Virus genome (UHGV): UHGV-0014912
DNA length: 33,704 bases
Origin: a virus
Reading direction: 5' to 3' (one strand)
Below, piece by piece: positions 3,780 to 25,877 of this stretch. The position numbers and the translations under genes were made by a program. The notes under the pieces are model-generated. The model was not told where the DNA came from. It saw only the letters and a list, made by a program, of their open reading frames with translations, and did not search any database. The first letter of the stretch is position 1. Each line of letters begins with the position of its first letter.

Positions 3780-3794
3780 TTTCTCTCCTTTTGA

Positions 3795-5253: not shown

Positions 5254-5283
5254 CTTGAATCTCCTTTTTAAAGACCTCCTTGT

Positions 5284-5293
5284 CTTTATTTAG
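5284..5293 (-). promoter_or_regulatory. CTAAATAAAG motif upstream of the 4969..5253 gene
   Basis: Exact 10-mer about 33 nt upstream of the ATG. Confidence 0.35.
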
Positions 5294-5295
5294 AA

Positions 5296-8200: not shown

Positions 8201-8985
8201 TGCTTGAAACTATCAAGATTGATTTTATCAAGTGGAATACCCAGACCGTAACGTTCGTTCGTTAGATAATCGACTGCTTGACTAGGACCATTGTTTGAAG
8301 GAGAGATGCCTCCTGTGTTCAGGTCAGTAATCAAACGTCCTCTAACGTCAACAGCTACTTGACTGTTAGGTTGCAGGATATCAGCTTGGTTTTCTAAGTC
8401 TTTGTTACGTTTACGCATAACGACACAAACAGAAGCGATACCATTACCAGTTGCAGAATCAGGCCAACCAGCTGGGTCATTTCCTAGATATTTCTGAGCA
8501 AGCGTGAAAACGTGACCGTATGGTTTACCAGTTGAGAATTCAACTTCAACGAAATTCTGATATTCAGCAGCGATAGAGCCTTTATCTAAAATGCCATCTC
8601 TGTAAGTTCCATCAAGTAAGATTTTCTGATTATCCATATACAGGTTTTTGAAGCTATCAACTTCACCTTCACAGATTGCAAAGACTTGCACCAGATAAGT
8701 CGTATCGACACCAACAGATTTCCAAACGTTAATAGTCCCTGTACGTTGTTCGCCGTAGATAATAGGAATTACGCTTGCAGGGTCAGACGTTGTTCCTAGT
8801 GTCGTTGCAGTGTCTGCGCTATTAAATCGAGGAACAGATTCTTTCATCGAATAGGACATTAATCCTGAAACAGCAGCAACAGCGACACCAATACCGATAG
8901 CAACAGCAAGAGCAGCACCAGCGGCATATGCCGCAGCAGCAGCGGAAGCACCCGCAATAATTGCACCAATAGCAGCAATAGCCAT
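5296..8985 (-). CDS. Tail tip / host-specificity protein (lambda J-like) with an I-like hydrophobic N-terminal segment
   Basis: 1229 aa; N-terminal region loosely resembles the start of lambda J; C-terminal tandem short repeats ([40 protein letters not shown]); N-terminal Ala/Gly-rich hydrophobic stretch. Confidence 0.55.
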
Positions 8986-9401
8986 TATTTTCTCCTGTTG
9001 AAAATTAATTCAAAATTAAAATCGTTAACGTTCACTAGTTTGTATTTGTTTTCGTGTTCAACCAATGCTTGATTATTGAAAACGATGGACGCAACGTAAT
9101 AGACACGGTTTTTATGTTTTTTCTTAATTAAGATAACCGAGCCAGTTTCTATCTTTTCTGATTTCGCAAGATGATTTTCACAAGCTTCGAGAACGTTGTT
9201 AAAACCAGTTAGCTCTTTGCAAATCTTGAGACCTTCGGGAATACTCTTGTATTTGTCTTTTAATTTGTCTGTGTATTCAGTAGCACAAACAAGGTCGATA
9301 TATTCAGCAACAAGGATATTACAGTCGTTTTGACCGAACTGATGTTCTTTGTTGATATATCGATTCAGTAATTTTGATAAGTCAGCTTGAAATTTAAACA
9401 T
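8985..9401 (-). CDS. Hypothetical tail-associated protein (possibly a K-like cysteine peptidase)
   Basis: 138 aa immediately upstream of and coupled to the J-like gene; Cys and His residues present ([11 protein letters not shown]) but no confident motif. Confidence 0.25.
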
Positions 9402-9414
9402 GTTTCACCTCTGA

Positions 9415-9424
9415 CTTTATTTAG
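9415..9424 (-). promoter_or_regulatory. CTAAATAAAG motif upstream of the 8985..9401 gene
   Basis: Exact 10-mer 17 nt upstream of the ATG, directly after the terminator of the preceding gene. Confidence 0.4.
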
Positions 9425-9426
9425 AG

Positions 9427-9452
9427 CCAAAAAAGGACTCATAAGGAGTCCT
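9427..9452 (-). terminator. Intrinsic terminator after the putative major tail gene
   Basis: Stem AGGACTC / GAGTCCT with loop ATAAG, preceded on the plus strand by an A-run (U-run on the minus RNA). Confidence 0.6.
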
Positions 9453-9467
9453 TCTTACTTCGTTCAA

Positions 9468-9947
9468 TTAAGCTTCTGGAGTAGTCGTATCGATAACGCC
9501 TGAAGCAACTGGACCACCGTCAACAGAAAGTGTCAGAGTCAGACCAGAAACTTCTGATTCTCCACCATTGTGAACAGCGCTTGACAAGAAACCGTTATAC
9601 ATTTTCGCAACGCCCAGATCTTTAGCAGCATCGACCCAATAAACGATTTTGAACTGACCACGTTTACCATCTTCCGCAAGCTTAATCAGAACATCATGAA
9701 CGCTTTCTGGAATATAGTTAACAGTCAAGTCGATATCAGGAACAGAACCACGACCAACAAGCTTACGAGAATACTTATGAGAGAAGTTCGGAGCTGTAAT
9801 AACTTCACGCTCAATACCAGTAGAAGGGAATGCACCAGTCTCTGGAATTTCAACGAATTTGTCGTTATTCAAGTCTGTGTTAGTGATATCAGAGTTATAG
9901 AACACACTGACGTAAGAGCCAGAGAAAATATCAAATTTATCAGCCAT
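9468..9947 (-). CDS. Putative major tail (tube-like) protein
   Basis: 159 aa; loose pattern resemblance to lambda V; TATAAATA element 30 nt upstream and a strong terminator downstream, consistent with a highly expressed structural gene. Confidence 0.35.
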   Translation of the reverse strand: MADKFDIFSGSYVSVFYNSDITNTDLNNDKFVEIPETGAFPSTGIEREVITAPNFSHKYSRKLVGRGSVPDIDLTVNYIPESVHDVLIKLAEDGKRGQFKIVYWVDAAKDLGVAKMYNGFLSSAVHNGGESEVSGLTLTLSVDGGPVASGVIDTTTPEA

Positions 9948-9976
9948 TTTGTTTTCCTATTTGAGTTAATATAGTT

Positions 9977-9984
9977 TATTTATA
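9977..9984 (-). promoter_or_regulatory. TATAAATA element (T4-late-promoter-like) upstream of the 9468..9947 gene
   Basis: Minus-strand TATAAATA about 30 nt upstream of the ATG. Confidence 0.3.
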
Positions 9985-10006
9985 AAGGGAATTCCTCCCC
10001 TTTTTG

Positions 10007-12829: not shown

Positions 12830-12841
12830 TTTCTTTATCCG

Positions 12842-13870
12842 TTAAAAAACTCCTGCATCTAAGGTTTCTCCTAACGCTACACAATTAATCTCTAATGGAG
12901 TTGGTTTATTACTTGGAGAATAGACTTCTGAGCCTTTGACCTTTACAGAAGTTGAGTTAATTTCATTACTATTTAGAGCCAGAATTTCACCTTGAGGAGC
13001 AGAAATCTTTTTACGTACTGTCAGATATTCCTCAATAACAAGTGAACCTTTCAGAGTTCCACCAGTAATTGGCAAAGCGTTAATATCTTCAGGAGTAGGA
13101 CGTTCAAGTTCTGTATAGACTTTCACCCACGGAGATTCTGTAACAGTTTCGTCGTGTGCAAGTTGCTTATTTCTGATTCTTATACTTGGATTACCGACTG
13201 ACGAACCAATAAGCTCCCAACCTTGACCATCAGGATGCTGAATAGCCATAGCAGACGTGCCAGAGTTATAAGGGTTATCGCTGTTCATTGCATCAACTGT
13301 TATCCATCTATTACCAGTTAATAGACCTAAGTCTTTGACACCCTCGATTTCTTCTGTACCAGCACCAACACCATAATCACCAACGTTTAACGGAGTTGTG
13401 AATTCAGCAAAGCCAGTAAAAATCTGACCATCAGGAGAAAGATTAAAAGTCGTAGTAACAACTGAGTTTTCGGAGCCTGTTGTTTCTTTCTTAGTTACCC
13501 AAGCGTTGAAAATATGATACAGACCGGATTCATTTTCTTTTTTCGATTCACCATCGATAACATAAAGGTTTCTGAATCTGATCAGTTTCTTTTCCATTAG
13601 CGCTTCGTCAAGCAACTGATAAACTGGGTCATCAGAAGTTTCAAAAAGACTTATAGAAGTGTCATTAACTGTTACATCACCAGATAATTTAACCGTAAAG
13701 TCATCGCGAAAGTCTTCCAGCGATTGGACATCTTTCTTGAAACCGATAACAGGAAAAGCAGCAAGATTCGCAGTTGAAATATATCCTGGGTCGTTATAAC
13801 CGGGGTGCTCAACGACTTCTGGGTTTACTGAAACTCTTACGTTATTTCCTACAAAAATATCATTTGTCAT
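12842..13870 (-). CDS. Tail structural protein (tube-like or fibre-associated)
   Basis: 342 aa between the head-tail genes and the tail fibre; C-terminal LPITGGTLKGSL resembles the GGTMTG motif of fibre shafts. Confidence 0.3.
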   Translation of the reverse strand: MTNDIFVGNNVRVSVNPEVVEHPGYNDPGYISTANLAAFPVIGFKKDVQSLEDFRDDFTVKLSGDVTVNDTSISLFETSDDPVYQLLDEALMEKKLIRFRNLYVIDGESKKENESGLYHIFNAWVTKKETTGSENSVVTTTFNLSPDGQIFTGFAEFTTPLNVGDYGVGAGTEEIEGVKDLGLLTGNRWITVDAMNSDNPYNSGTSAMAIQHPDGQGWELIGSSVGNPSIRIRNKQLAHDETVTESPWVKVYTELERPTPEDINALPITGGTLKGSLVIEEYLTVRKKISAPQGEILALNSNEINSTSVKVKGSEVYSPSNKPTPLEINCVALGETLDAGVF

Positions 13871-13877
13871 TTCTGCC

Positions 13878-14276
13878 TCACATTATGTATTCAAAAGTTA
13901 AAATTACTTGTGCGCTAACATGACCATTTGATGCTTCACCGTCGTAATCGGTAAAACTCGAACTCGGATAAATTTTATTGATTTTAAATTCACGAAGTTT
14001 CGGATCATCAGCTTTAATAGAAATCAGGTCGTAAACAGCTTTGTGAACGTCTGTTTCCTTTTTCTCAGAGAAAATATTAATCGTAATATTTAAAACGGCT
14101 GATAGCTTCGATTGAAGATTAATTCTTGTGTATTCTTCTGTCATTTCTGGAATCATCACTTGAACTGTTTCTGTAACTCCAGTTGTAAAAGCATTCTTTA
14201 CGTATTTCAGTTTTAGTTCTTTTACAATTATTTCTTCCAGTGCTCGTTTAATTCCTAAGCGTGGCATATTAATCAT
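13878..14276 (-). CDS. Hypothetical head-tail connector or completion protein
   Basis: ORF track extends to 14336, but GGAGAC RBS plus ATG at 14276 immediately after the upstream stop suggests the shorter start; position between capsid and tail genes. Confidence 0.3.
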   Translation of the reverse strand: MINMPRLGIKRALEEIIVKELKLKYVKNAFTTGVTETVQVMIPEMTEEYTRINLQSKLSAVLNITINIFSEKKETDVHKAVYDLISIKADDPKLREFKINKIYPSSSFTDYDGEASNGHVSAQVILTFEYIM

Positions 14277-14565
14277 AGAATGAGGTCTCCTGTTCATTTT
14301 TATAAGCAAGGTAGCAATTAACGAGTCCTGAACCATCGTTTGTCAGATAAGCGACGTTATACAAAATCTCGTTTAACAAAACAGAATCGTCTTGCTTAAT
14401 TGAGTTAATATCAGTGGTTATATAGATTGTCTCGCTTACTTGTCCGTTATCGTTATTAATTTCAATCTCAACAATACCAAGAGCGTCTTTATCGTTGATT
14501 TTAATTTTTTGACCGAAACGAGTTAAGAAAGACTGTTTTTGTTTTTCTGTATATGGGAAAATCAT
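14269..14565 (-). CDS. Hypothetical head completion or adaptor protein
   Basis: 98 aa directly downstream of the capsid gene terminator; RBS AAGGAGA. Confidence 0.3.
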   Translation of the reverse strand: MIFPYTEKQKQSFLTRFGQKIKINDKDALGIVEIEINNDNGQVSETIYITTDINSIKQDDSVLLNEILYNVAYLTNDGSGLVNCYLAYKNEQETSFYD

Positions 14566-14580
14566 GTTGTCTCCTTTTTA

Positions 14581-14590
14581 TTTTATTTAG
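14581..14590 (-). promoter_or_regulatory. CTAAATAAAA motif upstream of the 14269..14565 gene
   Basis: Near-exact copy (9 of 10) of the CTAAATAAAG motif between the capsid terminator and the RBS. Confidence 0.3.
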
Positions 14591-14600
14591 TCCAGAAACG

Positions 14601-14625
14601 AAAAAGGGACCCCTTTCGGAGTCCC
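14601..14625 (-). terminator. Intrinsic terminator after the major capsid gene
   Basis: GGGAC...GTCCC stem-loop with flanking A/T runs, immediately 3' of the capsid stop. Confidence 0.55.
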
Positions 14626-14644
14626 TTTGATTAATCAATTAAGA

Positions 14645-16615
14645 TTATTTTGCAGCTTTAGAACCAGCAGCTTCTGCTTTTTCATACAGATACAGACGGT
14701 CGTCAGCACAAACTTTCCAATCGATGTCAGCCCAAACACGTGGAACGATAGCACCGCGTGATTTGTAAGTTGTATCGTCCAGGTCAAGTGCAAGACCTTC
14801 CCATTCAGCAACAGTAACAGCAGAGAAATCACCAGCGATAACATTACCATCTTTCACCAGACCGGATCCGATAACGTCCTGTCCGCCGATTTTGTTCATG
14901 TCGTCGATGATATAACCAGCAACGTTCTGATCACGCAGGGTGGTTTTCAGATCACCTTCAAGAGCAGCAGCCATCAGATATTTGAACTTAGCCATTTCAA
15001 CGCCGTTACCTTTAGCTTTTGCAGCTTCAACGATGAACTCTTTGTAGGACATTCCCATTTTCTGAGCTACTAACTGTGCAACGATACTTTCTGGAGCTTT
15101 AGCATCGGTAATAGAACCGAACATCAGACCTTCCAGTTTAGCGCGAGACTGTTTTACGATGTGATCAGAAATGAAGCTTCCCAGATTAGGCATAGTCAAC
15201 AGAGCCTGACGAGAGATTGGGTTACCACCAGTAAATGTCTTAGGCATGAACTGAATGTTGGTAAATGCGCTTTCACCTTCTGGAGATTCACCGTTTTCGT
15301 CAACGAAACCGAATGCATCAACTGAGGATTTAGTCTGCTTAGGAACAGAAATTGGAGTTGTCAGACCGGTCAGGAAGTTCATTCCCAGTTGATCAGCAAC
15401 AGTGCCTTTCAGAAGCATTTCAACGAATGAATCGTAACGCTGAACTTCTTGCTGTACGCTTGATACAGTAGAAACGGTGTTGATTGCGCGGGCGTTCTGA
15501 GCAAGAGTATTAACAGGCAAGAAAATACCAGTCGAAACGTTCTGACCACGTTGTAGACGCTTACGAGTCATTTCCTGAGTATATTCAGCAGCAGCACCGC
15601 GAACAGCTTTACCAGCCATCATAGAGCGAACAGCATCACCAAGGTCGAATTTATTTTCCAGATTTACTTTAGTATCTTTAGTCATTTTACGAATTACCGC
15701 CGGAGCTTTGTTAGGTTTAATAGAGCGTTTGAATGCACGAGCTGTCATGCCTTTTGCAATTGCGTTCGCAACTTCTTTCTGCGGAACTTTATAACGTTCT
15801 GCGACTTCCAGAATTTCTTCTGTTTCTTCTGCGCGTTCTTCTTCTGTCAGTTCGTCATCAGCATGGGATTTATCAGTTTCGGTAACAGCAACGTCACCAG
15901 CTTGTTCTGCGTTTGCTTTATCTTCTGCAAGAATTTCTTCGCGTTTTGCGCGAGCTTCTTCTGGCATTGATTCAATTTCATCGATAGACATATCGGTCAA
16001 TTCTTCAATCGCCATTTCAACGATTTCGTCAACGGTAATATCTTCAAAACGTTTCATCTTATTTCCTCTATTTGTTGAATTTAATTTTTCGCGCAATTTC
16101 GTAGCGCTTTTGTTATCTGTATTTAGAAGTCTTCCCAGCCCAACAAAATCGTCAGCAGGAACAGTTACGAAACTAATTTCGTATGGTGCCCATTTTGTAA
16201 CTAACAGATTATCGCCTTGAAGTTCATATTCATTGATGTCGTATCCGAAGGAGATTTTACTAATAGTTCCTTCTTTAACTTTTTCATAAACTTCTTTAGC
16301 TAATGCACCGTGTTTACTAAATTGGACTTTTGCGCGACCAAATCGGTCACTATCGATTCGAACAGAACCAGGAATTACTTTTCCCAGATGATTATCGAAA
16401 TTATGATTGAACAGCAGAGCCGCACCATTATTAATTCGAGTCAAGTCGGCATTATCTGGACCATCGTGAACAAGAATTTCATTAACAGTAACAGGGTGAC
16501 CATATTCGTTTTCAATCTGACGCTCGACAGGAGTTTCAGAGCTAAACGCAATTTCAAAAATACCATCGGATTCAGTAATATCTTGAACTGTATACTCGCG
16601 TTTTAATTTAAGCAT
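14645..16615 (-). CDS. Prohead protease - scaffold - major capsid protein fusion (HK97-fold capsid), with an in-frame internal start for a capsid-only product
   Basis: Single ORF; N-terminal ~165 aa protease-like, acidic scaffold-like linker, C-terminal capsid-like region; ORF track start at 16627 is TTG, ATG at 16615 has a GAGGA RBS; internal in-frame ATG at 16057 with AGAGGAAATAAG RBS. Confidence 0.65.
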   Translation of the reverse strand: MLKLKREYTVQDITESDGIFEIAFSSETPVERQIENEYGHPVTVNEILVHDGPDNADLTRINNGAALLFNHNFDNHLGKVIPGSVRIDSDRFGRAKVQFSKHGALAKEVYEKVKEGTISKISFGYDINEYELQGDNLLVTKWAPYEISFVTVPADDFVGLGRLLNTDNKSATKLREKLNSTNRGNKMKRFEDITVDEIVEMAIEELTDMSIDEIESMPEEARAKREEILAEDKANAEQAGDVAVTETDKSHADDELTEEERAEETEEILEVAERYKVPQKEVANAIAKGMTARAFKRSIKPNKAPAVIRKMTKDTKVNLENKFDLGDAVRSMMAGKAVRGAAAEYTQEMTRKRLQRGQNVSTGIFLPVNTLAQNARAINTVSTVSSVQQEVQRYDSFVEMLLKGTVADQLGMNFLTGLTTPISVPKQTKSSVDAFGFVDENGESPEGESAFTNIQFMPKTFTGGNPISRQALLTMPNLGSFISDHIVKQSRAKLEGLMFGSITDAKAPESIVAQLVAQKMGMSYKEFIVEAAKAKGNGVEMAKFKYLMAAALEGDLKTTLRDQNVAGYIIDDMNKIGGQDVIGSGLVKDGNVIAGDFSAVTVAEWEGLALDLDDTTYKSRGAIVPRVWADIDWKVCADDRLYLYEKAEAAGSKAAK

Positions 16616-16668
16616 TTTAGTCCTCAAGATTGAGCGTCTTTCGACGCTCTTTTGTTTTCTGAATATAT

Positions 16669-18225
16669 TTAGATGTCCTTCCCAGAGTTGTCCGAATTAA
16701 TTTCTGCAACCTCAACTTGTGCACCAGCAGCAAGTTGAGCAGGAGCCGCAGCAACTTTAATTTGATTATCGTACTTAGGAATATAACGATTTCGTTCCTG
16801 TTCAATCTGAGCAAACACCATGTCTGGATCTTCACCACGACTAATAATAACGTCAGCAGCAGATTTAAAACCGTTTTCAACATCAATAGAGTCTTTCTGA
16901 GAATCTTTAATTGGGTCAATTGATTCCCACGCTGGATAAGTCCAAGAGATTTTGCTTAGAACCAGAGGAATAGCAGTCATCTTAATGTCAACTTGCTCTT
17001 TAAGAATTGCCCATCCTAACCATTTCTCGAAAATAACCTCGAAAACTTGCTCTTTAAGGTCACGCTGAACAGATTTAAACATCACTCTTTGAGCTTGATC
17101 ACCGAAGCGAGCCGCGGAGTAGTTAATATTTGCAGTGTCACCTTTCCAGCCTTGCTTATAAAAGCCATAACCCATTGCAAGGTGGTCTTCCAAACGATCG
17201 GTAAAGCTAATGAAATCATCACCGCCTTGAGTGCTTGTAAATTGCTTAATATCATGACCTGCAGGCAATTGATGAATCGTACCAGCTTCGAATTCTTGAA
17301 TAATATCAGGAGCAGCATATTCTTTGTCTTCGTCGTCTTCTGCCAGATCGATACTTTCTTGACCATCTTTATCCTGAGTGATGAAGCCCATAGAACTTGC
17401 GGCAGCACGTTTTTGAACCAGAGTTGCAAAAGCAAAAGCGTTATATTGATTCATAGTGTCGATATTCGCCACAGCTTCTGGAATACCTCTGCGTTGATCA
17501 GGAAATAATTCTCTGTAATAGTGAATAATCTCGTTAGCAGGAACACCGTAACAATCACCGCCTTCTGTTTGTGTCGATTGATTCATTTCTTTAAACCAAT
17601 AACGAACAGGAGCGTCGTCGTTGTCGTATTCGATACCATCTAGAATATAACCGTCGTCTGTTTGCTGTCTGTCACCGTATTTACAGCGGGCAGCTTCGAT
17701 AATCTCCAGTTTGAATTCATCATCTTCGTGAATTCTGATAAAAACTTCACCGTCGATAAATCGTGAACGTTCTACGAGTTGTTGAAAACGACGCCAGTTA
17801 ATACGTCTGTTTTTGCTAAAGCGTTTAGCGTTTTTTGACCAGAATTCAAACTGAGTCATAATTTCATTGTTTAGCTGAACATTAGGACGTCCGTCAGTTC
17901 CTAGAATTCGAACCTGAGGATTAATTCCTTCACCAATAACGTTATCAACTTGATACTGAACAGCGCGTTTACCCAAAGGAGTATTAATGCTGATAGTTCT
18001 GGACATCGCTCGTACGTTGTCAGCAGATGAACGAATTTCGTTATTGATTGTTGCAGTTCTGATTAACGATTCTTGAAAATCGTCATCAAGTCGATCTGTT
18101 CTTGGACCAATCTGACGTTTTAATTCATTACCAAAAGCTGTATCGTTGTTAATAACAAGTTTCGGACTTTTTTGTTTTCGCTGTTTTGATTCAGGACGTT
18201 TTCTGAACCAATCTAGAATATTCAT
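16669..18225 (-). CDS. Portal protein (lambda B-like)
   Basis: 518 aa; block NYSAARFGDQAQRVMFKSVQRDLKEQVFEVIFEKWL resembles the lambda B region SYSSARASANESWRYFMGRRKFIAARLATQMF; follows the large terminase. Confidence 0.65.
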   Translation of the reverse strand: MNILDWFRKRPESKQRKQKSPKLVINNDTAFGNELKRQIGPRTDRLDDDFQESLIRTATINNEIRSSADNVRAMSRTISINTPLGKRAVQYQVDNVIGEGINPQVRILGTDGRPNVQLNNEIMTQFEFWSKNAKRFSKNRRINWRRFQQLVERSRFIDGEVFIRIHEDDEFKLEIIEAARCKYGDRQQTDDGYILDGIEYDNDDAPVRYWFKEMNQSTQTEGGDCYGVPANEIIHYYRELFPDQRRGIPEAVANIDTMNQYNAFAFATLVQKRAAASSMGFITQDKDGQESIDLAEDDEDKEYAAPDIIQEFEAGTIHQLPAGHDIKQFTSTQGGDDFISFTDRLEDHLAMGYGFYKQGWKGDTANINYSAARFGDQAQRVMFKSVQRDLKEQVFEVIFEKWLGWAILKEQVDIKMTAIPLVLSKISWTYPAWESIDPIKDSQKDSIDVENGFKSAADVIISRGEDPDMVFAQIEQERNRYIPKYDNQIKVAAAPAQLAAGAQVEVAEINSDNSGKDI

Positions 18226-18704
18226 GGATTTTTAAACCTCACTTTGATGGTCGTAACAGGTGATTCACCGTTTGCCATTTTTTCGGATCTAATAAGACTT
18301 GCCAGATTCGAAACAAGACGTTTTCTGGCTAATAGCAACGAATCAAGAGTTTCATAAACGAAAGATTTTCCGTTGATGCTCATTTGTTGAATAGCTTCTT
18401 CGTTGTTTGTAAGTCTGTATTCAATAACTTTGTCCAAGTCGTTTATTAATTCTCGAAGTTGTTGTTTCTTCGATTTTTCATTAAACGGTGACTTAACTTT
18501 AATTAATTCATTTGAAATCAAAGCGCCGTTACTAAAGATAACAACCGAGAAAGTTCCTTCGATAAAATCAGAAGTATCCACCCCGATATCAGCGGGGCAG
18601 TTTTCTTGCTTGAACAAAACAGTTTCTTTTGAACCGATTTGAACGTTAGCGCCTTGAGCATTAGTTAATTGAAGTTTTTCACCGATGAAAATTTCTTTTG
18701 TCAT
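18222..18704 (-). CDS. Hypothetical protein between terminase and portal (possibly head-tail joining, W-like)
   Basis: 160 aa; stop overlaps the portal start; no confident motif. Confidence 0.3.
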   Translation of the reverse strand: MTKEIFIGEKLQLTNAQGANVQIGSKETVLFKQENCPADIGVDTSDFIEGTFSVVIFSNGALISNELIKVKSPFNEKSKKQQLRELINDLDKVIEYRLTNNEEAIQQMSINGKSFVYETLDSLLLARKRLVSNLASLIRSEKMANGESPVTTIKVRFKNP

Positions 18705-18728
18705 TCTGGTATCCTCATCAGTAATATT

Positions 18729-18738
18729 CTTTATTTAG
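18729..18738 (-). promoter_or_regulatory. CTAAATAAAG motif overlapping the large terminase stop, upstream of the 18222..18704 gene
   Basis: Exact 10-mer 27 nt upstream of the ATG. Confidence 0.35.
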
Positions 18739-20630
18739 TTAAGCCATCCACGTTTCTTTTGATTGCTTCGTTGTATACGATGCACAGAACGAGCCTGAAC
18801 GCGTTTAGGTTCTTGCTTAACTGGTTCTATTAGCTCTTGCTCTAAGTCTTCAGGAATTTCGACCTCTGCTTTGGAAGCTAGCTTTCTCCACTCGTGAAAT
18901 TTGATTTTCTCTAGAACTTGCAGACGCGCACAATAACCGTAGTTAAAGCAGTCAAGACCTTCGTTTCTGACTCCACCTTGCTTAATAACCCATCTGACAG
19001 TATTACCAGAGCGTTTAAGTTCTTCCGACATTAGCTGTTCGGTATAATCATCTGGAACATCATCAGAGATTTCGACTCTTACAGGCGTATTCTGAACATT
19101 CTTTATGCTTCTGTTTAGTAGCTCGCGAACCATGTCTTTGCCTTTGTTAACTCCAATCATGAACAGTTCATAACCGCCTGTTTTCGTGATTTTCGTTGGC
19201 ACATATGGAGCATCAACTGATGAAGCACCCTTAATAGCGTGTAAGTTTCTCCATTGAGAACAGAAACGATATATTGTTTTTGTTGCTCGACCATTTGAAC
19301 TATCGACGTTCGCCCATGCAAGAGTTAATTTTCTTCCTGAGTCAGTTCTGAAAGTCGCTTTCAGATAAGCAAGAAGGTCTTTATAAGCAGGCGAGTCGAT
19401 AACTTCGGCGTTCATCGTCATGAAAGAGCGATGGTCGAGGATATAAACTGTTTTCTCGTTGTGACCCATCAGTGTTACTTCCAAACGGTCTTGCTGTTGG
19501 TCAACACCCGCAGTTAAAAACAATGTGTCATCTGGAATATTTCTAATACCGATATCAGTTTTTAATTCATCAAGCTTTGAGGACTCCAGTTCTTCGTTTA
19601 AATCGTCAAACGGAATACCGAGAACAGTGTTATAAAACGTTGACAAACTGAAAGTCTGAAAAGCGTCTTTGAAGTCTGCAACGACTGATTTAATACTGGA
19701 CATCGGACTGTACAAACGATTTATATGGAATCCTGCAACATTCGATTCTGGATTAGTCTGAATCCATTCACCTTGTTTTACCGCTCTTGCTCTTTCTCCT
19801 TCTGTGAAATGATGTTCACAAACAGGACATTGAATATAAGCACTGTCGGGATCTGGTAGAGATTTACCGTCTTGTTTCAACCATTCGAATTTAATATTTT
19901 CCCAAATAAGTTCATGCATATGTCCACATTCAGGACATGGCACATGATATTTGCGCTTATCGGAGTTTTCATACTGCGTGTTAATAGCACCGTATTTGCC
20001 AGTAGGAGTTGAACAGATAAAGACACGAGCATCCTCGCCGAAAGTCGTAGCACGTTGCTCGGCTATCATTATCGGGTTGCCTTCTTCGGTGTCTGTTTCT
20101 ACTGCGTCAACTTCGTCTAACAGGAGCAACGGTAATGTCTTGCCTCGTAAGTGAGAAGGGGAGTTCAAACTCATGAAGTACCAAAAGCCACCGTTGCGGA
20201 GCTGAATCTGTGATGTGTTATTAACTGCGTTTCTGTCGTTCTTATCCGTGACTATTCGTTGCATCTCTTCGGATGCGTCAATCATTGGCTTAATCTTGCC
20301 TGATAACCACTGAGTTGTTTCTTTTGCTGTTGACTGTAAAACACCTGCGTTGCCTGGTTCTGTCGCAGACTTATAGAACAACACACCGTTCAGAATCGTT
20401 GTCTTGCCGATCTGTGCAGACGTCATCAGAACGATTTTTTTCTTTCTCTCTTTTATTACATCTATCATCCCGCGCTGGAACTCGAATAATTTCATCGGTT
20501 GTCCTGAGTGCGGACCATCTGGGAATTTCAAGTTAGCTTCGACCCACTCTGATGGTGTGTAGTCCGGTGGTGGAAGCAAGAAACGTTTTGCACGTTTTAG
20601 AATCAATTCTAGTTTTTGTTTGTTTTTCAT
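18735..20630 (-). CDS. Terminase large subunit (lambda GpA family)
   Basis: 631 aa; Walker A-like LMTSAQIGKTT, Walker B-like LLLLDEVD, zinc-ribbon-like CPECGH...CPVCEH, C-terminal nuclease-like region; AGGTGA RBS. Confidence 0.85.
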   Translation of the reverse strand: MKNKQKLELILKRAKRFLLPPPDYTPSEWVEANLKFPDGPHSGQPMKLFEFQRGMIDVIKERKKKIVLMTSAQIGKTTILNGVLFYKSATEPGNAGVLQSTAKETTQWLSGKIKPMIDASEEMQRIVTDKNDRNAVNNTSQIQLRNGGFWYFMSLNSPSHLRGKTLPLLLLDEVDAVETDTEEGNPIMIAEQRATTFGEDARVFICSTPTGKYGAINTQYENSDKRKYHVPCPECGHMHELIWENIKFEWLKQDGKSLPDPDSAYIQCPVCEHHFTEGERARAVKQGEWIQTNPESNVAGFHINRLYSPMSSIKSVVADFKDAFQTFSLSTFYNTVLGIPFDDLNEELESSKLDELKTDIGIRNIPDDTLFLTAGVDQQQDRLEVTLMGHNEKTVYILDHRSFMTMNAEVIDSPAYKDLLAYLKATFRTDSGRKLTLAWANVDSSNGRATKTIYRFCSQWRNLHAIKGASSVDAPYVPTKITKTGGYELFMIGVNKGKDMVRELLNRSIKNVQNTPVRVEISDDVPDDYTEQLMSEELKRSGNTVRWVIKQGGVRNEGLDCFNYGYCARLQVLEKIKFHEWRKLASKAEVEIPEDLEQELIEPVKQEPKRVQARSVHRIQRSNQKKRGWLN

Positions 20631-20775
20631 AAGTCACCTAAGCTAATGAATCCTTTATGGATTCCATCTCTCATGACTCTATTTATGAAAATATCCACAA
20701 TTATTTTCGGAGGTCGCTTGCACCTGGATTTTCGCCTGTTAAAGTTCAATCCATCGAAACACGGGGAATAACGAA

Positions 20776-21216
20776 ATGAAAAACGCATTAACTGTTGAAA
20801 ATAAAATTGCTTCTGAGTTAAACGCTGGTACTGAATTATCAGAACGTAAGCTTGCAGAGAAATTTGAAACAACTCGTTCCGTTGTTTGTCGTGTTAAAGC
20901 GAACATCGAGAAATACACAGTTGTTGAAGCTGTACAGGAAGAAAAACCTGAAGTTAAAAAACTTAATACAGCAGAAGTTATCGACACTGTAAAAGCTGAG
21001 GAGATTACTCACAAAGCTGTAGGACTCGATAATATTGAAAAGCTTCTCGCTAGTAAGTCAGCGAATAAAAAGCCCGCTGAAATTAGCTTGTTAATTTTTA
21101 AATCGGTAAAAGGAGATTTTGAGTTATTCAGTAAGCAAATGAAGGGAAAATCATCGCAGTATATTAAAGACCAATTTTTACGCTCTAAAAATAAACTTGA
21201 TAAGGATTCAAAATGA
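20776..21216 (+). CDS. Putative DNA-binding (HTH) protein, first gene of a three-gene coupled operon
   Basis: 146 aa; N-terminal HTH-like segment (TELSERKLAEKFETTRSVVCRVKAN); transcribed divergently from the large terminase gene. Confidence 0.35.
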   Translation: MKNALTVENKIASELNAGTELSERKLAEKFETTRSVVCRVKANIEKYTVVEAVQEEKPEVKKLNTAEVIDTVKAEEITHKAVGLDNIEKLLASKSANKKPAEISLLIFKSVKGDFELFSKQMKGKSSQYIKDQFLRSKNKLDKDSK

Positions 21217-21311
21217 AAGCTGTTAAAACTGTAATCGCTGTTATCGTTGCTGTTTCTTCTATGTCTGCTAATGGTATCGCGATAGACTTTGATTATTGCG
21301 TTAAGATATGA
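21213..21311 (+). CDS. Small hydrophobic peptide (32 aa), translationally coupled on both sides
   Basis: MKAVKTVIAVIVAVSSMSANGIAIDFDYCVKI; ATGA overlaps with both the upstream stop and the downstream start; below the ORF-track size cutoff. Confidence 0.25.
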   Translation: MKAVKTVIAVIVAVSSMSANGIAIDFDYCVKI

Positions 21312-21556
21312 AATTAGATATCCCACCGACATGGAGACACGATTTTAAGATTTCATCATGTGGCAAGTACATAACGTTAGAACTCTTTATACCGAGTGTC
21401 TCCGCGATGGTGGGATATCGTGCAAAGAGGATTACAATTCGTGCTATGTTTGATGCTTTTCAGTTTAATGATCGCAAGACGCAACAAACGTTAATTCGCT
21501 TGCTTGAAGAACTGAACAAAAAATATTATTCAATAATTGAGATATTTCCAAAATGA
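21308..21556 (+). CDS. Hypothetical protein
   Basis: 82 aa, ATGA-coupled to the small peptide ORF and followed by a terminator. Confidence 0.3.
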   Translation: MKLDIPPTWRHDFKISSCGKYITLELFIPSVSAMVGYRAKRITIRAMFDAFQFNDRKTQQTLIRLLEELNKKYYSIIEIFPK

Positions 21557-21561
21557 CAAAA

Positions 21562-21585
21562 GGGAGCTTAGTGCTTCCTTTTTTA
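21562..21585. terminator. Bidirectional terminator between convergent genes
   Basis: GGGAGC / GCTTCC stem (one G-U pair) followed by TTTTTT on the plus strand and preceded by AAAA. Confidence 0.5.
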
Positions 21586-21882
21586 GATATCACCCGTCAT
21601 AACATCATTAAAGAATTTTCTCGCCTGAGCATTAGTACCCATAAAAGCGATGAACTCACCATCCAGAACAATCTGTATAGCGCGTTTGATAAAATCATCT
21701 TGAACACGTTTCGATAATATTATATCAACCGGTCTTGGATCCATATCAGTTAAATCTGGATGTTCCTGAATCGGCCTGATAATAGATTCTGACTGACGAA
21801 CAATTATCGGCATTTCGTGTCTGTGTTTTTCCAGAAATTCAATATCGAATTCTGTTTTACCGTCTAGCAAAAGTTGTTTCAT
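21583..21882 (-). CDS. Hypothetical protein (last gene of the HEG-lipoprotein operon)
   Basis: 99 aa; start overlaps the lipoprotein stop (ATGA). Confidence 0.3.
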   Translation of the reverse strand: MKQLLLDGKTEFDIEFLEKHRHEMPIIVRQSESIIRPIQEHPDLTDMDPRPVDIILSKRVQDDFIKRAIQIVLDGEFIAFMGTNAQARKFFNDVMTGDI

Positions 21883-22091
21883 AGTTTTCCTTCATTTAAT
21901 TTTCTGCAACTGTCAATATCGAGTTTAGCTGTTTCTGGATTATACTCTGTGAGATTACAGATAACACCTTGCTGTTTGAATGTTTCAACGTTGATATTAC
22001 TGTTAATACATCCTATCAGAGAAAAAGCTCCGACAATCGTCAGAGCCATGATAATAGGTTTAAAAAGTTGTTTTGCTTGTTCGTTATTCAT
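21879..22091 (-). CDS. Small outer-membrane-type lipoprotein (candidate superinfection-exclusion, Cor/Llp-like)
   Basis: 70 aa; signal peptide with lipobox LIGC (PIIMALTIVGAFSLIGC); mature part about 45 aa; TAATG-coupled to the upstream HEG. Confidence 0.4.
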   Translation of the reverse strand: MNNEQAKQLFKPIIMALTIVGAFSLIGCINSNINVETFKQQGVICNLTEYNPETAKLDIDSCRKLNEGKL

Positions 22092-22699
22092 TACGCTGCC
22101 TCTCTTAAACGACGTGCTTGTTGTGCTAGTTTCATTTTCTCGATAGTTTCAGCAGAACGAGTTCCGATAACACGACCTTTATTTGCTTTGCCGATTTTCT
22201 TTTTTGTTTCTTCTGACTGAACAGAACCGGTTTTTGCTTTTGAGATTTTTCTACGTGTCTCTAGTGAAACAACATGACCAGTCATGCTATCAGAGATTTT
22301 CTTGTTTCTTTCTTTAATTTGTTGTTCTGTCATGGATTTAAAAACGTTGCCTCCCGCTTGTCCTGATGAAATATTTAATAAGTTAGCTTGCTGTTGTCTT
22401 GCGTGTTTAATGCAAGCAGTTTCGAAGTCATACGCTTCCTGTTCGTCTGTGAAAGTCTTTAGAACAACTTTAAACACAACGTCTGTCGGTTTCATTTCTG
22501 CTAGTTTCTCACGAACTAAACGACCGCTGCCTATATAAAGCATGTCAGGCTGTTCATTGTAAGATTGTTTGCCGTAATAAACGTAACTGACATCATTGAT
22601 GCGAAAAACGGTTTTATAAACTGCGTAAGCTTTGATTTCAGCGTTACGGATATCAGAACGGGTTTTGTAAGTTACGTTGTTAATAGTGCGCTTGTGCAT
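22091..22699 (-). CDS. GIY-YIG homing endonuclease with NUMOD3 repeats (Seg / I-TevI-like)
   Basis: 202 aa; N-terminal GIY-YIG-like AVYKTVFRINDVSYVYYGKQ; three C-terminal NUMOD3-like repeats (GHVVSLETRRKISKAKTG, SVQSEETKKKIGKANKG, RVIGTRSAETIEKMKLAQ). Confidence 0.7.
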   Translation of the reverse strand: MHKRTINNVTYKTRSDIRNAEIKAYAVYKTVFRINDVSYVYYGKQSYNEQPDMLYIGSGRLVREKLAEMKPTDVVFKVVLKTFTDEQEAYDFETACIKHARQQQANLLNISSGQAGGNVFKSMTEQQIKERNKKISDSMTGHVVSLETRRKISKAKTGSVQSEETKKKIGKANKGRVIGTRSAETIEKMKLAQQARRLREAA

Positions 22700-23117
22700 T
22701 TGAGTTTCCTTAAAGTTAAAAATAAAAGTGAAAGAGATTTACATTCAGTTGTTTTTCTGAATTACACTTGTATTTAGTAACTAGGTTTATCTATAACCTG
22801 ATAAAAACAGGGAATAGCACTAAATGATCAAGGAACACTCCTATTAAATTAACGTTTGTTAATAAATCCTAGGACGCATCAGGTTGAAACCAGATAGCAA
22901 TATGAACAGGAGTAACATCAAGGTCGGTTAATGCAGCAGGATAGATCCTAGAAAGAACCTGATAACAGCTTGAACATAACGAGAAAGGGCGCTAGCCCGT
23001 CGAAAGCTCGCTTGCGAGATTGAGACTAACTAACGAATTCAGATTTAATTAGCGATCATTAAGTTTATTAGATATCCAGTGATCAGTATAATGCAGTTAA
23101 CCAGTAATCAATATTAT

Positions 23118-23337
23118 CCAGATCTGAAAACAAGATAGGCGCAGCCGCGCGAAGCGCTAATAATATTATCTAGAAAAAACATTATTAACTTAGTCAAACT
23201 TGATTATCTGGATTACTGAGTGATCATAACAATGTTGACTTAGTGTTATCTGTCGCGCTTACGCGCTAATGTTATTAATTGGGGCTAACGCCCTCTCGTC
23301 GAGCAAGCTCTCCTCGCTATCTGGTTTTCAGATCTGG
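23118..23337. repeat. 21-bp imperfect inverted repeat pair (23118..23138 and 23317..23337) bracketing a ~180 bp segment with iteron-like TATC(C/T)(A/T)G copies
   Basis: CCAGATCTGAAAACAAGATAG versus CTATCTGGTTTTCAGATCTGG (two mismatches); six TATCCAG / TATCTGG / TATCTAG / TATCTGT motifs between 23073 and 23324. Confidence 0.5.
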
Positions 23338-23429
23338 TTCTTTCCTTGTTTTTAAAACCTTCCATATCATCTTTATCCAATTGTTCTTATAGGGAGATTT
23401 TTCTCAGTATCCATGCGCTTCTCCGACTT

Positions 23430-23471
23430 GCATCGATGCGCTATCGATGCGTTTTGCTGTACATCGATGCA
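23430..23471. promoter_or_regulatory. Three tandem operator-like palindromes (GCATCGATGC core)
   Basis: GCATCGATGC at 23430..23439 (perfect 10-bp palindrome) with related copies ending at 23450 and 23470, about 90-130 bp upstream of the 23562 gene. Confidence 0.45.
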
Positions 23472-23529
23472 CTTTGTTCCGATTGTTTTTGATCATTTTG
23501 TGCTGAGATAAGTTTACGACTTCTCTCCT

Positions 23530-23537
23530 TATAAATA
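23530..23537 (+). promoter_or_regulatory. TATAAATA element (T4-late-promoter-like) upstream of the 23562..24008 gene
   Basis: Exact TATAAATA 25 nt upstream of the ATG, followed by AAGGAG RBS. Confidence 0.35.
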
Positions 23538-23561
23538 TTCTTTGAACAAAGGAGAATCCTA

Positions 23562-24008
23562 ATGAGCTACTATTTTTGTAACGTCGGTGAAGTTTTCGAC
23601 GGAGAAATTTCTATTCTTCGAAAGCGTGATATTTTCACAAACACGATTATCGGAGATGTATCAACCCAAAAAGAAAAAATGAAAAAATGTTCACCTAGTA
23701 TTCAGAGACATTTAGAAAAAAGTCAGAATCTTGATATCGGTTGCGTCTATGTTTTAAAGCTTGAGAACGAAAAATGGTATGTTGGATATACTAAAAACAT
23801 ATTAGGAAGAATTAAAGAACATGCTATGGGTATTGGTGCTGAATGGACAAAAACTAACAAACCTATTCAACTTGTTAATTTTTTCATCGGAGATCATAAA
23901 ATTGAGAGAAGATTTACTGAAGAATTAATGATTAAGTTCGGCTGGCAAAATGTTAGAGGTGCAAGATGGACTGCTAACGAGATTCTTTGTCCTATGATGT
24001 TCAGATAA
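23562..24008 (+). CDS. GIY-YIG nuclease-domain protein with a ~60 aa N-terminal extension
   Basis: 148 aa; GCVYVLKLENEKWYVGYTKNILGRIKEH fits the GIY-(~10)-YVG pattern of small GIY-YIG proteins. Confidence 0.55.
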   Translation: MSYYFCNVGEVFDGEISILRKRDIFTNTIIGDVSTQKEKMKKCSPSIQRHLEKSQNLDIGCVYVLKLENEKWYVGYTKNILGRIKEHAMGIGAEWTKTNKPIQLVNFFIGDHKIERRFTEELMIKFGWQNVRGARWTANEILCPMMFR

Positions 24009-24182
24009 TTTTTCGAGAGTTTGTTTACTATCCCGGTGATGGGTATAAATACTAGTATAAGTTAAAGATTCGCACTGATTGAGAGATTTCTTCCTCGTTT
24101 GTTTACTCTCAGTCATTACGATTATAAAATAACTATGAAAGCAAGTTCATTTAGAAAATCCAAATAAAATTCCTTAAAGTTT

Positions 24183-24208
24183 GAAGCACTCTTCGGAGTG
24201 CTCTTTTT
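24183..24208 (+). terminator. Strong intrinsic terminator
   Basis: AGCACTC-TTCG-GAGTGCT stem-loop followed by CTTTTTTC. Confidence 0.7.
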
Positions 24209-24394
24209 TCAACATTACAAAAAAGGCAACCCATGAAATTTATTCCAAATAAGTTCGAAATTGAATCTCGATTAGATGCTGGTGAAACTTTTCAGCAGAT
24301 TGCAGAATCAAAGAAAATGAATAAAGCAACGCTGTATAACGCTTGCAAAAAACGCAACATCAGAACGACTAAACAGAAATAAAAGGAAAACAAA

Positions 24395-25312
24395 ATGAAA
24401 TTTTCAGTATTTGATAACTTAAACGGAACCACTAACGTTAGCTTGAATAAAAAAATTGTTAAGACTAACGAAATGACCAACAACAGAAACAAACTGAAAG
24501 CATTTGTCGGAAGTTTTACCGATATTCATCGCAACGTTAGAGCAAAAATGCTAACTAAAATTGAAAATGCTTTGACTGTAAAAGATATGCGTAACTTTGA
24601 AATCGGTATGTCCGAACTGAATGATAAACCTGCTATCGTTGCTTATACAACTGATAAAGCTGTTATCGTTTGTTCAGAAGCAAATCGTTGGAAAGCTCTT
24701 GGTTCAGACCTGACTTTAGTTCATGCGAAAGAATCCCAAAACTTTGTTCAGCAATATATTGGTGATTTTATCGAGATTAAAGAAGAAATTGAATTTCCGA
24801 CTGAACAGAAAGTTGACGTTATTTCTAACGAGTTGGAAGAATTGAGAAAAGAAATTGAGAAAATGAAAAAAGAAAAGGCAGAACATAAAAAACTTATCTC
24901 TGCCTATGCGAAAAATTATAAGGGTGATGAATTATCTTTTGATGAAGACCTGACGATTATCAAACATCAGAACAGTATTAAATCAGAAGTTGGCGCTTCC
25001 GAAATTTCTAACGAATCAACTGTATTTAGTGTAACAGAAACAGCAGAAAATTTAAACGACGACCTGATCGTTTCTATCGATCAATCAAACAAGGAAAATA
25101 AAATGCCTTTATATGATTATTCCTGCGAATGCGGAAACTATTTCGAAAAAACAAGAAAAATCTCTGAACGTTCTAGCGCTGAATGTCCTGAATGCCATAA
25201 AGAAGCAAAACAGCAACTGACAGCACCAGCCGGAATTCAAAACGGTTATTACGAACAAGGCAGAATGTTCATTAACAGAAACAAACAAACGTTTAAAACT
25301 GCTACACGATAA
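24395..25312 (+). CDS. Coiled-coil protein with a C-terminal FmdB-type zinc-ribbon domain
   Basis: 305 aa; C-terminal MPLYDYSCECGNYFEKTRKISERSSAECPECHK (CxC...CxxC); internal AAGGAAA RBS before that Met suggests possible separate expression of the zinc-ribbon part. Confidence 0.4.
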   Translation: MKFSVFDNLNGTTNVSLNKKIVKTNEMTNNRNKLKAFVGSFTDIHRNVRAKMLTKIENALTVKDMRNFEIGMSELNDKPAIVAYTTDKAVIVCSEANRWKALGSDLTLVHAKESQNFVQQYIGDFIEIKEEIEFPTEQKVDVISNELEELRKEIEKMKKEKAEHKKLISAYAKNYKGDELSFDEDLTIIKHQNSIKSEVGASEISNESTVFSVTETAENLNDDLIVSIDQSNKENKMPLYDYSCECGNYFEKTRKISERSSAECPECHKEAKQQLTAPAGIQNGYYEQGRMFINRNKQTFKTATR

Positions 25313-25330
25313 AGGAGCATCGCGCTCCTT
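25312..25330. terminator. Bidirectional terminator between convergent genes
   Basis: GGAGC-ATCGC-GCTCC stem-loop flanked by AAA and TTAATTAATTT. Confidence 0.45.
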
Positions 25331-25877
25331 AATTAATTTCTATCATGTCTTGTGATTGTTCAGATTCTTTTTCGTCTTCTGATTCGTCCTGTTCGTTCGG
25401 ATCTTCGTTTAGTTCCTGTTCGAACAGTTCAACACCGTTTAGAGTATCGTCGATAATTCTTTTCAGTGTTTCTTTCACCGTCTGAACATCAGAAGCTGAT
25501 TCCAAAATTTCGATAGCATGTTTATTCGGTATTAATCGCATAACAGATTTTAAGTCAGCACAAAAACGGTTCAACTCAGATTGAACATATTCAACTGGAA
25601 TTAATTGCTCCGATTTTTCTTGCGCTGTGTATTGAGCCAAGTCTGCTTTTGCTTTCTGCTCGCGGAGTTTTTCTTTCTCCATTTCATCGCGAACGGACAT
25701 ATTACGCATCGGGTTAATTTTGTTCTCAATTATCCAACGAGTGCCTTCGTCTTCTGGAATACCAGAGGGATTATCTGAATACGGAAGTCCTTCTGCACGC
25801 CAGCTCTTGATAGCGTTCAGGGTATAACCATAACGACGCGCCATATCAGTCATTGAAATATATGTTTTTCTTGCCAT
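25329..25877 (-). CDS. Putative terminase small subunit (lambda Nu1-like winged HTH)
   Basis: 182 aa (lambda Nu1 is 181 aa); N-terminal block SMTDMARRYGYTLNAIKSWRAEGLPY resembles Nu1 QLADIFGASIRTIQNWQEQGMPV; acidic C-terminus; a MerR-like regulator is the alternative. Confidence 0.45.
   Translation of the reverse strand: MARKTYISMTDMARRYGYTLNAIKSWRAEGLPYSDNPSGIPEDEGTRWIIENKINPMRNMSVRDEMEKEKLREQKAKADLAQYTAQEKSEQLIPVEYVQSELNRFCADLKSVMRLIPNKHAIEILESASDVQTVKETLKRIIDDTLNGVELFEQELNEDPNEQDESEDEKESEQSQDMIEIN

Follow-up and report, generated by a model that had tools for sequence, protein, structure and literature searches.

A resident Seg-like nuclease gene coupled to a polymorphic small-peptide gene in a rare Escherichia coli prophage element

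We begin by asking why a gene for a homing-type endonuclease should share an operon-like unit with a gene for a small, predicted envelope protein. The question is raised by three minus-strand open reading frames (ORFs) in UHGV-0014912, a viral stretch of 33,704 nucleotides (nt) that holds a prophage element next to ybiT of Escherichia coli; the whole stretch is called the window here, and positions are its coordinates. Phage homing-endonuclease genes are usually regarded as solitary selfish inserts, and an earlier note on this DNA suggested that the arrangement may be such a gene with hitch-hiked cargo. What we find instead is a Seg-like enzyme that has long been kept under selection at one slot of a temperate element, directly upstream of an orphan, predicted exported peptide whose alleles are old and shuffled. 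The reading that we favour, and to which we give somewhat less than an even chance, is that of an accessory operon in which a long-resident Seg-like nuclease, a polymorphic peptide acting in the periplasm and lineage-specific cargo would act in parallel, and not as one machine, in conflicts between elements or phages.

We consider the layout of the unit first, with the coordinates of its features collected in Table 1. On the minus strand the nuclease and peptide genes join at GCGTAATGAAT, i.e. ...GCG TAATG AAT..., with a 1-nt overlap, and the peptide gene and the third ORF join at ...CTATGAAA..., an ATGA with a 4-nt overlap, so that both junctions of the earlier note can be read directly. Shine-Dalgarno-like motifs are located 5-8 nt 5' of the starts (AAGGA for the nuclease, GAGG for the peptide and AAGGA for the third ORF), and a consensus promoter scan gave no promoter-like site between or inside the three genes. 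The hairpin at the end of the unit has a folding energy of -12.9 kcal/mol on the plus strand (z -2.5) and is weaker on the minus strand; it is conserved in relatives (97% in L014 and 88% in L012) though the flanks differ, and it is likely a bidirectional terminator that ends the operon. The overlaps, the motifs, the lack of a predicted internal promoter and the terminal hairpin bear out the single operon-like unit that had been proposed, and we regard the three genes, as far as their arrangement can tell, as compact, co-oriented and translationally coupled.

Table 1. Features of the window and gene order downstream of the nuclease gene in the lineages that carry it (L numbers are loci; aa, amino acids)
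Feature or lineage	Position or loci	Strand	Description
Nuclease gene (ORF 1)	22091-22699	minus	202 aa, Seg/I-TevI-type endonuclease
Peptide gene (ORF 2)	21879-22091	minus	70-aa precursor of small exported peptide (predicted)
Third gene (ORF 3)	21583-21882	minus	99 aa, acidic, no family assignment
Terminator hairpin	21556-21583		flanking A and U runs, between convergent units
Internal hairpin	22026-22047	minus	9 bp, then UUUUUCUCU (U-run), within signal-peptide codons of peptide gene
Nuclease leader	22700-23045	minus	window-lineage leader absent from L014; L012-lineage equivalent partly retained in L014 (blastn)
Control region	23045-23472		conserved in all E. coli variants
giy148	23562-24008	plus	148 aa, second stand-alone GIY-YIG gene, Pfam GIY-YIG 1.6e-7
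Whole element	261-31950		~32-kb siphovirus-like prophage between ldtB and ybiT
Large serine recombinase	30417-31922		inserts element next to ybiT
TerS	25329-25877		5 kb away from TerL
Lysozyme	27751-28236		lone lysozyme gene of element
Window type	window, L002-L011		peptide, then 99-aa ORF
Citrobacter portucalensis	L071		peptide; third ORF absent
L3Cip3 type	L012		peptide, 8-nt overlap, unannotated by PGAP; third ORF absent
L028/L030 type	L028, L030		peptide
L019 type	L015, L019		62-aa ORF, then peptide, then 104-aa ORF, all coupled
L022 type	L022		peptide, ATGA overlap; nothing beyond
L073 type	L073		peptide, then 102-aa ORF
Serratia	L016, L017		30-nt gap, then peptide, then unrelated acidic ORFs
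L032/L033	L032, L033		peptide 0.1-1.1 kb downstream

Is the 202-aa protein a GIY-YIG/NUMOD3 endonuclease, as had been claimed? The NUMOD3 part is matched by Pfam (1.9e-8, in two stretches), PHROG 314 "homing endonuclease" matches at 3e-18, the PADLOC "HEase" model at 4e-7 and TIGR01453 weakly. A tblastn search of 50,697 phage genomes aligns ~80% of the protein, from residue 25 on, with annotated T4-like Seg-like GIY-YIG endonucleases at 30-34% identity. Because the Pfam GIY-YIG model gave no match and a search of the nuclease profile against PDB sequences returned only noise, a fold comparison was needed for the GIY-YIG part; it finds the catalytic fold (a three-stranded sheet plus helices) in an N-terminal domain of about residues 20-112, and the claim stands. 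The C-terminal tail is basic (isoelectric point, pI, 10.7) with helical NUMOD3 repeats at residues 125-201. Across the family (19 sequences) the residues Y28, Y41, G43, K44, Y55-G59, E64, K65, E93 and N109 are invariant, with Y28 and Y41 as the conserved tyrosines on the first two strands, and an extra conserved PDMxYIGSG loop follows strand 2. E93 and N109 are spaced by 16, which we take to be as expected for the metal-binding Glu and Asn of I-TevI, whose E75 and N90 are 15 residues apart. The protein is best described from its alignment as a Seg/I-TevI-type GIY-YIG plus NUMOD3 nuclease with a largely conserved active site, in which the putative catalytic Glu and Asn are invariant. It shares with SegA-G and I-TevI the C-terminal NUMOD3 repeats and the small, basic build of ~200 aa. 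It differs from the Seg enzymes in the extra loop, in being unseen by the Pfam model, and in its setting, a temperate prophage-like element rather than a lytic T-even phage, where it occupies a single fixed slot and diverges with the backbone while Seg genes are scattered.

The next question is whether this gene is a recent arrival. The nuclease family is present in nine diverged lineages from E. coli, Citrobacter and Serratia, and in 9/9 a peptide homologue lies downstream on the same strand, on which ground the linkage of the two genes is both real and old. Distant GIY-YIG/NUMOD3 proteins in viral contigs have no peptide neighbour. Over the nine lineages, all with the gene in one syntenic slot, the nuclease is 45-96% identical in amino acids, and TerL at the comparable E. 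coli and Citrobacter loci is 79-94% identical. Between the window and the Citrobacter element L071 the values are 95.5% for the nuclease (synonymous divergence, dS, 0.11) and 94% for TerL, and for the other lineages against the window they are 60-67% and 79-92%, respectively. The ratio of nonsynonymous to synonymous change (dN/dS, omega) of the nuclease is 0.19-0.35, i.e., purifying selection, and for the peptide within an allele it is 0.05-0.14, i.e., strong purifying selection; with these ratios and the nuclease-peptide order recurring in nine diverged lineages, we take all three ORFs for real genes.

The hallmark of mobility, a sporadic presence with a phylogeny incongruent with the host, was not found for this nuclease. 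All members whose TerL gene is uninterrupted have it, and the only two elements that lack it have TerL genes broken by insertion sequences (IS). Because of the fixed slot in nine lineages, the divergence that tracks the backbone and the purifying selection, the gene is a long-term resident that is inherited with the element, probably domesticated or persistently homing, and not a recent solitary invader. A different picture is given by giy148. This second gene is a precise insertion of ~520 bp (23473-24004) relative to the L012, L014 and L019 lineages, just after the CATCGATGC repeats, and the same interval in Citrobacter L071 has a different 222-aa gene with a YYYGK...GSG motif (L071:8458-9126), so the site behaves like a hotspot for free-standing endonuclease genes. 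Since giy148 is such a precise insertion, it is the sporadic, selfish-looking gene of this region and the 202-aa nuclease the resident one. We note separately that L071 also has a third NUMOD3 protein (L071:5612-6127).

These results bear on the proposal that the locus is a mobile, free-standing homing cassette, with a hitch-hiking lipoprotein of the Cor/Llp style that masks a receptor (FhuA, BtuB, OmpC or LamB). The Seg-like architecture of the nuclease and the further GIY-YIG genes that come and go in the same region are in its favour, as is the relative L014, in which the terminator and ~225-250 bp matching the nuclease leader of L012/L028-type elements are retained, with ~130 unrelated bp between them, and both the nuclease and the peptide genes are absent. 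L014 looks like a clean presence/absence polymorphism, though one limited to elements with IS-broken TerL, and is a candidate empty-site substrate for cleavage by the nuclease. The presence of the nuclease in all members with uninterrupted TerL and the divergence that follows the backbone speak against such a cassette, and the peptide provides further points on both sides.

We turn our attention to the peptide. The lipobox rule used is PROSITE PS51257, {DERK}(6)-[LIVMFWSTAG](2)-[LIVMFYSTAGCQ]-[AGS]-C, in which the Cys has to stand at 15-35 and at least one of residues 1-7 has to be K or R. The window copy satisfies it with TIVGAFSLIGC (lipobox LIGC, Cys28, Lys7), as the earlier note had it, and lipidation is predicted. 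Under the E. coli +2 sorting rule an Ile at +2 leads to the outer membrane, and the window allele, with Ile at this position, is predicted to be sorted there. The description as an outer-membrane-type lipoprotein thus holds as a prediction for the window allele but not as an essential feature of the family. The rule is passed by 8/13 family representatives; among the five that fail, four have no Cys in the signal region and the Serratia one has a non-canonical VGVC. The L073 allele is likewise without a lipobox. The variant that far outnumbers the others by contigs here is a non-lipobox form too, the L019-type peptide, whose linked 104-aa protein has 496 blocks in the index. These other alleles are predicted to have lost the anchor, or to have an uncleaved or a signal peptidase I signal instead. 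The feature that is kept throughout is a two-Cys (C-x16-C) loop, with the family core C-x3-[DE]Y[NDE]P-x-TA-x2-[DQ]I-x2-CR. In the window the mature peptide has 43 aa, a pI of 5.1, one Pro and two further cysteines, and its conserved loop reads C45-x3-EYNPETAKLDID-x-C62-R.

How far does the likeness to Cor and Llp extend? Cor (phi80, N15, T1) and Llp (T5) resemble the window peptide in being phage-encoded and of ~70 aa, with a lipobox in the window allele and predicted outer-membrane sorting; T5 llp is, by its annotation, likewise an early, separately expressed small lipoprotein gene, a further point for the homing cassette. We compared the peptide family with the T5 Llp sequence, validated against GenBank, and with phi80 Cor, taken from its record. 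The hhalign probability is 4.8% for Cor, over 13 lipobox columns only, and 1.5% for Llp, with the lipobox only, and no Cor or Llp PHROG matches the peptide at E<=10. Nor did the peptide match anything in Pfam, PHROGs, NCBIfam, PADLOC, PDB or the 50,697 phage genomes. The label "Cor/Llp-like" is not sustained by these comparisons, and the peptide forms a tiny orphan family, with six clusters among 5.8 billion proteins and seven (at 50% identity) among 1.84 billion, ~13 in total. It also differs from Cor and Llp in its non-obligatory lipobox, in the position of its gene away from the tail and receptor-binding genes (the tail-fibre gene is ~9 kb and the J-like gene 13 kb away), and in being highly polymorphic even between elements with near-identical tails. 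A functional analogy, envelope exclusion, is possible. Another comparison is offered by small periplasmic proteins: in the MliC/PliC pair of lysozyme inhibitors the anchor type (lipid or none) varies within the family, and T4 Spackle is a periplasmic exclusion protein. The window peptide is similar in being small, exported and, as predicted, periplasm-acting with an anchor that varies within the family; it differs in having no homology to them detectable in PHROGs and PDB searches and in being, at ~40 residues, much smaller. As an aside, the conserved and selected homologue at L012:5613-5864 (NZ_CP062211.1, E. coli L3Cip3) is left unannotated by RefSeq/PGAP, and the same gap occurs in EN-1077.

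The evolution of the peptide is quite different from that of the nuclease beside it. Between the window and L071, whose nucleases are nearly the same, the peptides are 68% identical, with a dS of 1.29 and an omega of ~0.33 in the mature part. In the L012-L028 comparison, nucleotide identity is 86% through the nuclease gene and is lost ~57 nt past the start of the peptide gene. Against L3Cip3, the window is 92% identical in nucleotides in the tail region, 73-77% in the head and terminase genes and 70% in the nuclease gene, while the peptide/99-aa region has no nucleotide similarity and the peptides are 40% identical. In three independent comparisons the junctions fall within the signal-peptide codons, immediately after the nuclease gene. 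Positive selection was considered as the cause of the divergence and rejected; with omega at 0.33-0.41 and dS very high, the data point towards swapped old alleles and away from fast adaptation. The pattern indicates that recombination exchanges whole alleles of the mature domain, old ones, without regard to the nuclease allele or the tail module. Such shuffling is of the kind seen in proteins of phage-phage or phage-host conflict, and it fits a polymorphic specificity determinant, neither a binder of a conserved receptor nor a partner co-adapted with the nuclease. Possibly the peptide is an exclusion or immunity factor.

With this the homing cassette can be weighed in full. Its lipoprotein part draws on the canonical lipobox with Ile at +2; the absence of Cor/Llp homology past the lipobox, the lack of a lipobox in half of the alleles, the distance from receptor-binding genes, peptides that are 40% identical under tails of 92% identity, and the many ancient alleles, unexpected for a binder of a conserved host receptor, all go against it. 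We consider it quite unlikely, and the hitch-hiked cargo of the earlier note gives way to a peptide that recombines independently of the nuclease allele in a fixed syntenic slot.

Could the resident nuclease itself be the engine of the shuffling? It would cut related elements in or close to the 5' portion of the peptide gene, and co-conversion would then swap whole mature-domain alleles of a periplasmic exclusion or immunity peptide, making the pair a self-propagating "specificity cassette" of the prophage family. Such an account is tenable because the junctions are in the signal-peptide codons in three comparisons and because an empty-site relative exists; we nevertheless hold it to be quite improbable. 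The same part of the gene contains the internal hairpin of Table 1, which is terminator-like in the scan (-14 kcal/mol, z -3.7). Comparable hairpins, made of different bases, are found in the L028 and L019 alleles and not in five other alleles. It may serve as an internal attenuator, or simply follow by chance from the ALTIVGA codons.

While the recombination pattern separates the two proteins, their constant adjacency invites the opposite idea, that the nuclease and the peptide form a two-component exclusion system in which the peptide would sense or halt an injecting tail from the periplasm and the nuclease would destroy the entering DNA in the cytoplasm. This would be a split analogue of SNIPE, a membrane-bound defence nuclease with a transmembrane-DUF4041-GIY-YIG architecture in one polypeptide tethered to the inner membrane (10.1101/2025.11.03.685801). 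A GIY-YIG nuclease, an envelope-located element and a setting of phage conflict are common to both; the window nuclease, however, is soluble and has no DUF4041 match, and its envelope part is a separate, mostly periplasmic peptide. The pair is adjacent in 9/9 lineages, often with overlapping stop and start codons, and defence cargo is located nearby, a TIR protein in the window and a retron in L014. We judge the two-component system very unlikely all the same: cleaved lipoprotein alleles have no cytoplasmic part with which to touch the nuclease, the nuclease has no membrane segment in a hydrophobic-segment scan (grand average of hydropathy -0.76), the peptide alleles recombine freely with respect to the nuclease alleles, so that there is no co-adaptation, and PADLOC has no such model.

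A lysis role for the small lipoprotein (o-spanin, antiholin-type regulator or colicin-style release lipoprotein) is the least probable account that we consider. Its small size and lipobox would fit Rz1 and release proteins, no annotated holin or spanin accompanies the lone lysozyme gene, the element has an Rz-like 94-aa protein (4969-5253), and the layout of nuclease, small ORF and small lipoprotein is superficially that of a colicin operon. The arrangement expected of an Rz1-type o-spanin gene is not what we see, as the Rz-like gene is 17 kb and the lysozyme gene 6 kb away from the peptide gene; with its single Pro, the mature peptide is not Pro-rich, and the lipobox is not conserved across the alleles. 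The nuclease has no colicin translocation or receptor domains, and the colicin-operon analogy was rejected on this ground together with the lipobox. A partnership of spanin type was also considered, from the 7-residue string TAKLDID common to the peptide and the Rz-like protein, and rejected since the string does not co-vary in L3Cip3.

We now examine the DNA upstream of the operon. A non-coding region of 860-1000 bp separates the operon from divergent helix-turn-helix (HTH)/Zn-ribbon genes. Its part at 23045-23472, presumed to be the promoter and operator region of the operon, contains two sigma-70-like sites on the minus strand (23232-23203 and 23188-23160), the only ones directed at the operon, and a 21-nt inverted repeat (23118-38 / 23317-37, 178 nt apart). 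Also found are CATCGATGC(G) palindromic repeats (23408-23473), GCATCGATGC palindromes (23429-23473) and GCGCTAAT(A/G)TTATTA repeats, and these repeats are candidate operator, origin or packaging sites. In all the other lineages, Serratia included, the region holds 3-6 clustered exact GCGAAGCG motifs (4-6 in most; L012:6600-7230, L016:6540-6660, L022:3717-3995, L033:6-279), with few or none elsewhere in each relative's locus. The window lineage has one exact copy, no more than chance, and the clusters were dropped as binding sites of the nuclease for this reason.

The region is the main support for a further alternative, in which the nuclease serves core DNA handling, either by processing an origin or packaging site or by binding the control region as I-TevI does, with autoregulation, and the peptide is an unrelated passenger. 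As the first gene beside this non-coding region, with its GCGAAGCG clusters in relatives, and as a gene of all members with uninterrupted TerL, the nuclease would be well placed for such a role, and no replication or repressor function is recognised among the proteins of the element. The near loss of the cluster in the window lineage, an EN-1077 element whose nuclease gene is interrupted by IS3, and the Seg homing enzymes as closest relatives make the alternative unlikely; we also know of no GIY-YIG/NUMOD3 protein with a core DNA-handling role, which counts against it.

Returning to the accessory operon, we picture its working as follows. The operon would be read from the conserved upstream control region, and its downstream genes would be translated by coupling. 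The nuclease would cut the DNA of elements, related or competing, from which its allele is absent, in marker exclusion or homing as the T4 Seg enzymes do, and its cutting may locally stimulate recombination. Independently, the peptide of ~40 residues with its disulfide loop, exported by Sec, would work in the periplasm and act at the envelope as a polymorphic determinant of exclusion or immunity. The linkage of the two would come from operon compaction and co-inheritance rather than from a joint mechanism. The gene structure, the fold, the family membership, the synteny, the selection and the recombination pattern are observed, and expression, targets and exclusion activity are inferred.

Several observations weigh against this account. 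The residue that corresponds to I-TevI R27 is uncertain: R60, near-invariant, has a substitution in one member of the family, and K65 is the other candidate in the alignment. The only promoter-like sites of the operon are weak and 460-530 nt upstream. The two nuclease-free elements could be true empty sites, favouring active homing, and the constant adjacency in nine lineages could reflect functional dependence of the pair. In L026 the peptide gene stands behind a divergent LprI-like lipoprotein gene with no nuclease directly upstream, and the contig ends there. The AlphaFold 2 model of the peptide, with a predicted local distance difference test score of 55, is unreliable; a role in exclusion is suggested solely by where the peptide gene lies, how small it is and how it evolves. 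Should it determine exclusion or immunity, the peptide would represent a new, very small family of such factors, and the locus would lend itself well to a study of whether allele exchange in a gene is promoted by a resident endonuclease next to it. The practical gain is modest, as the element is rare and the peptide gene is missed by standard RefSeq annotation.

The third gene of the operon remains to be placed. Its 99-aa product is acidic (pI 5.1) and cytoplasmic, and has no match in profile scans of Pfam, PHROGs, PADLOC and TIGR/NCBIfam type. Its homologues form 12 clusters, all from E. coli and 75-99% identical. It is found beside three different peptide alleles (window, L019 and L073) and is absent from L012, L022, L071 and Serratia, the Citrobacter element with the 95.5% identical nuclease being a close relative from which it is missing. 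Of the three-gene unit described earlier, the nuclease-peptide linkage is therefore conserved beyond the window and the 99-aa ORF is an indel between close relatives, which marks it as lineage-specific cargo outside the conserved unit.

Finally, we describe the element that carries the operon. The window ends in 1.8 kb of E. coli ybiT (99% identity) and begins with 260 bp that match the ldtB side. Members of the family are 32-36 kb long. The element encodes TerS (phrog_57), a GpA-type TerL, portal, protease-capsid fusion, tail tube, tape measure, J-like protein, tail fibre, distal tail protein and T4-type lysozyme; no replication, repressor or holin gene was recognised among its annotated proteins, and across the whole window there are no Rfam matches and no tRNAs. 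Judged by TerL, it is present in 7/5426 complete E. coli genomes. Five of the seven have the nuclease gene, the EN-1077 copy being the one interrupted by IS3. The other two, 2021CK-01361 and MS 115-1, are those with IS-broken TerL genes and have the L014-type empty site (L014:5440-5860), and 2021CK-01361 additionally carries retron Ec67. DNA searches of the region against isolated phages gave no close relative, the nearest TerL being 51% identical. A scan of GTDB, at one genome per species, with the nuclease profile likewise gave no match.

The element is a mosaic. In the comparison with L018, the tail module (301-14276) is 92% identical in nucleotides to the L3Cip3 element, the right arm 93-98%, and the head, terminase and control block (14271-24952) 70-79%. 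Downstream of the lysozyme gene, on the minus strand at 26214-27409, is a TIR-domain protein (CAP12-PCTIR_TIR; PADLOC PDC-S35, 9e-71) with a YuaX-family gene upstream of it, and L014 has a retron Ec67-type reverse transcriptase/endonuclease (L014:7740-9509); because of these two the right arm is a defence-cargo region. Within the tail cluster (4339-5253, minus strand) an endonuclease VII/HNH-like gene (158 aa, phrog_423, 7e-36) is flanked by two small membrane-protein ORFs. One is the Rz-like 94-aa protein, with an N-terminal transmembrane segment and a coiled coil, and the other has 65 aa and a single transmembrane segment; both lie far from the lysozyme gene and may be lysis or holin-type genes. 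Just upstream of a 49-aa HTH gene, a terminator-like hairpin with a T-run (24185-24210, plus strand) shows compensatory changes, GCACTCTTCGGAGTGC in the window and L014 against GCGCTCGCAAGAGCGC in L012; with a promoter-like site nearby (24102-24130), a short leader or small RNA, or an attenuator, is possible. The slot between the operon and the GntR-like gene beside TerL (21213-21556, plus strand) is hypervariable and rich in envelope proteins. In relatives (L015:7082-8193; L022:5233-6135) it holds a 191-aa YadA-anchor protein, a 133-aa secreted protein or a 300-aa LprI-like lipoprotein, and the 32-aa ORF of the window at 21213-21311, similar to the signal sequence at the N terminus of the YadA-anchor protein, may be what is left of that gene.

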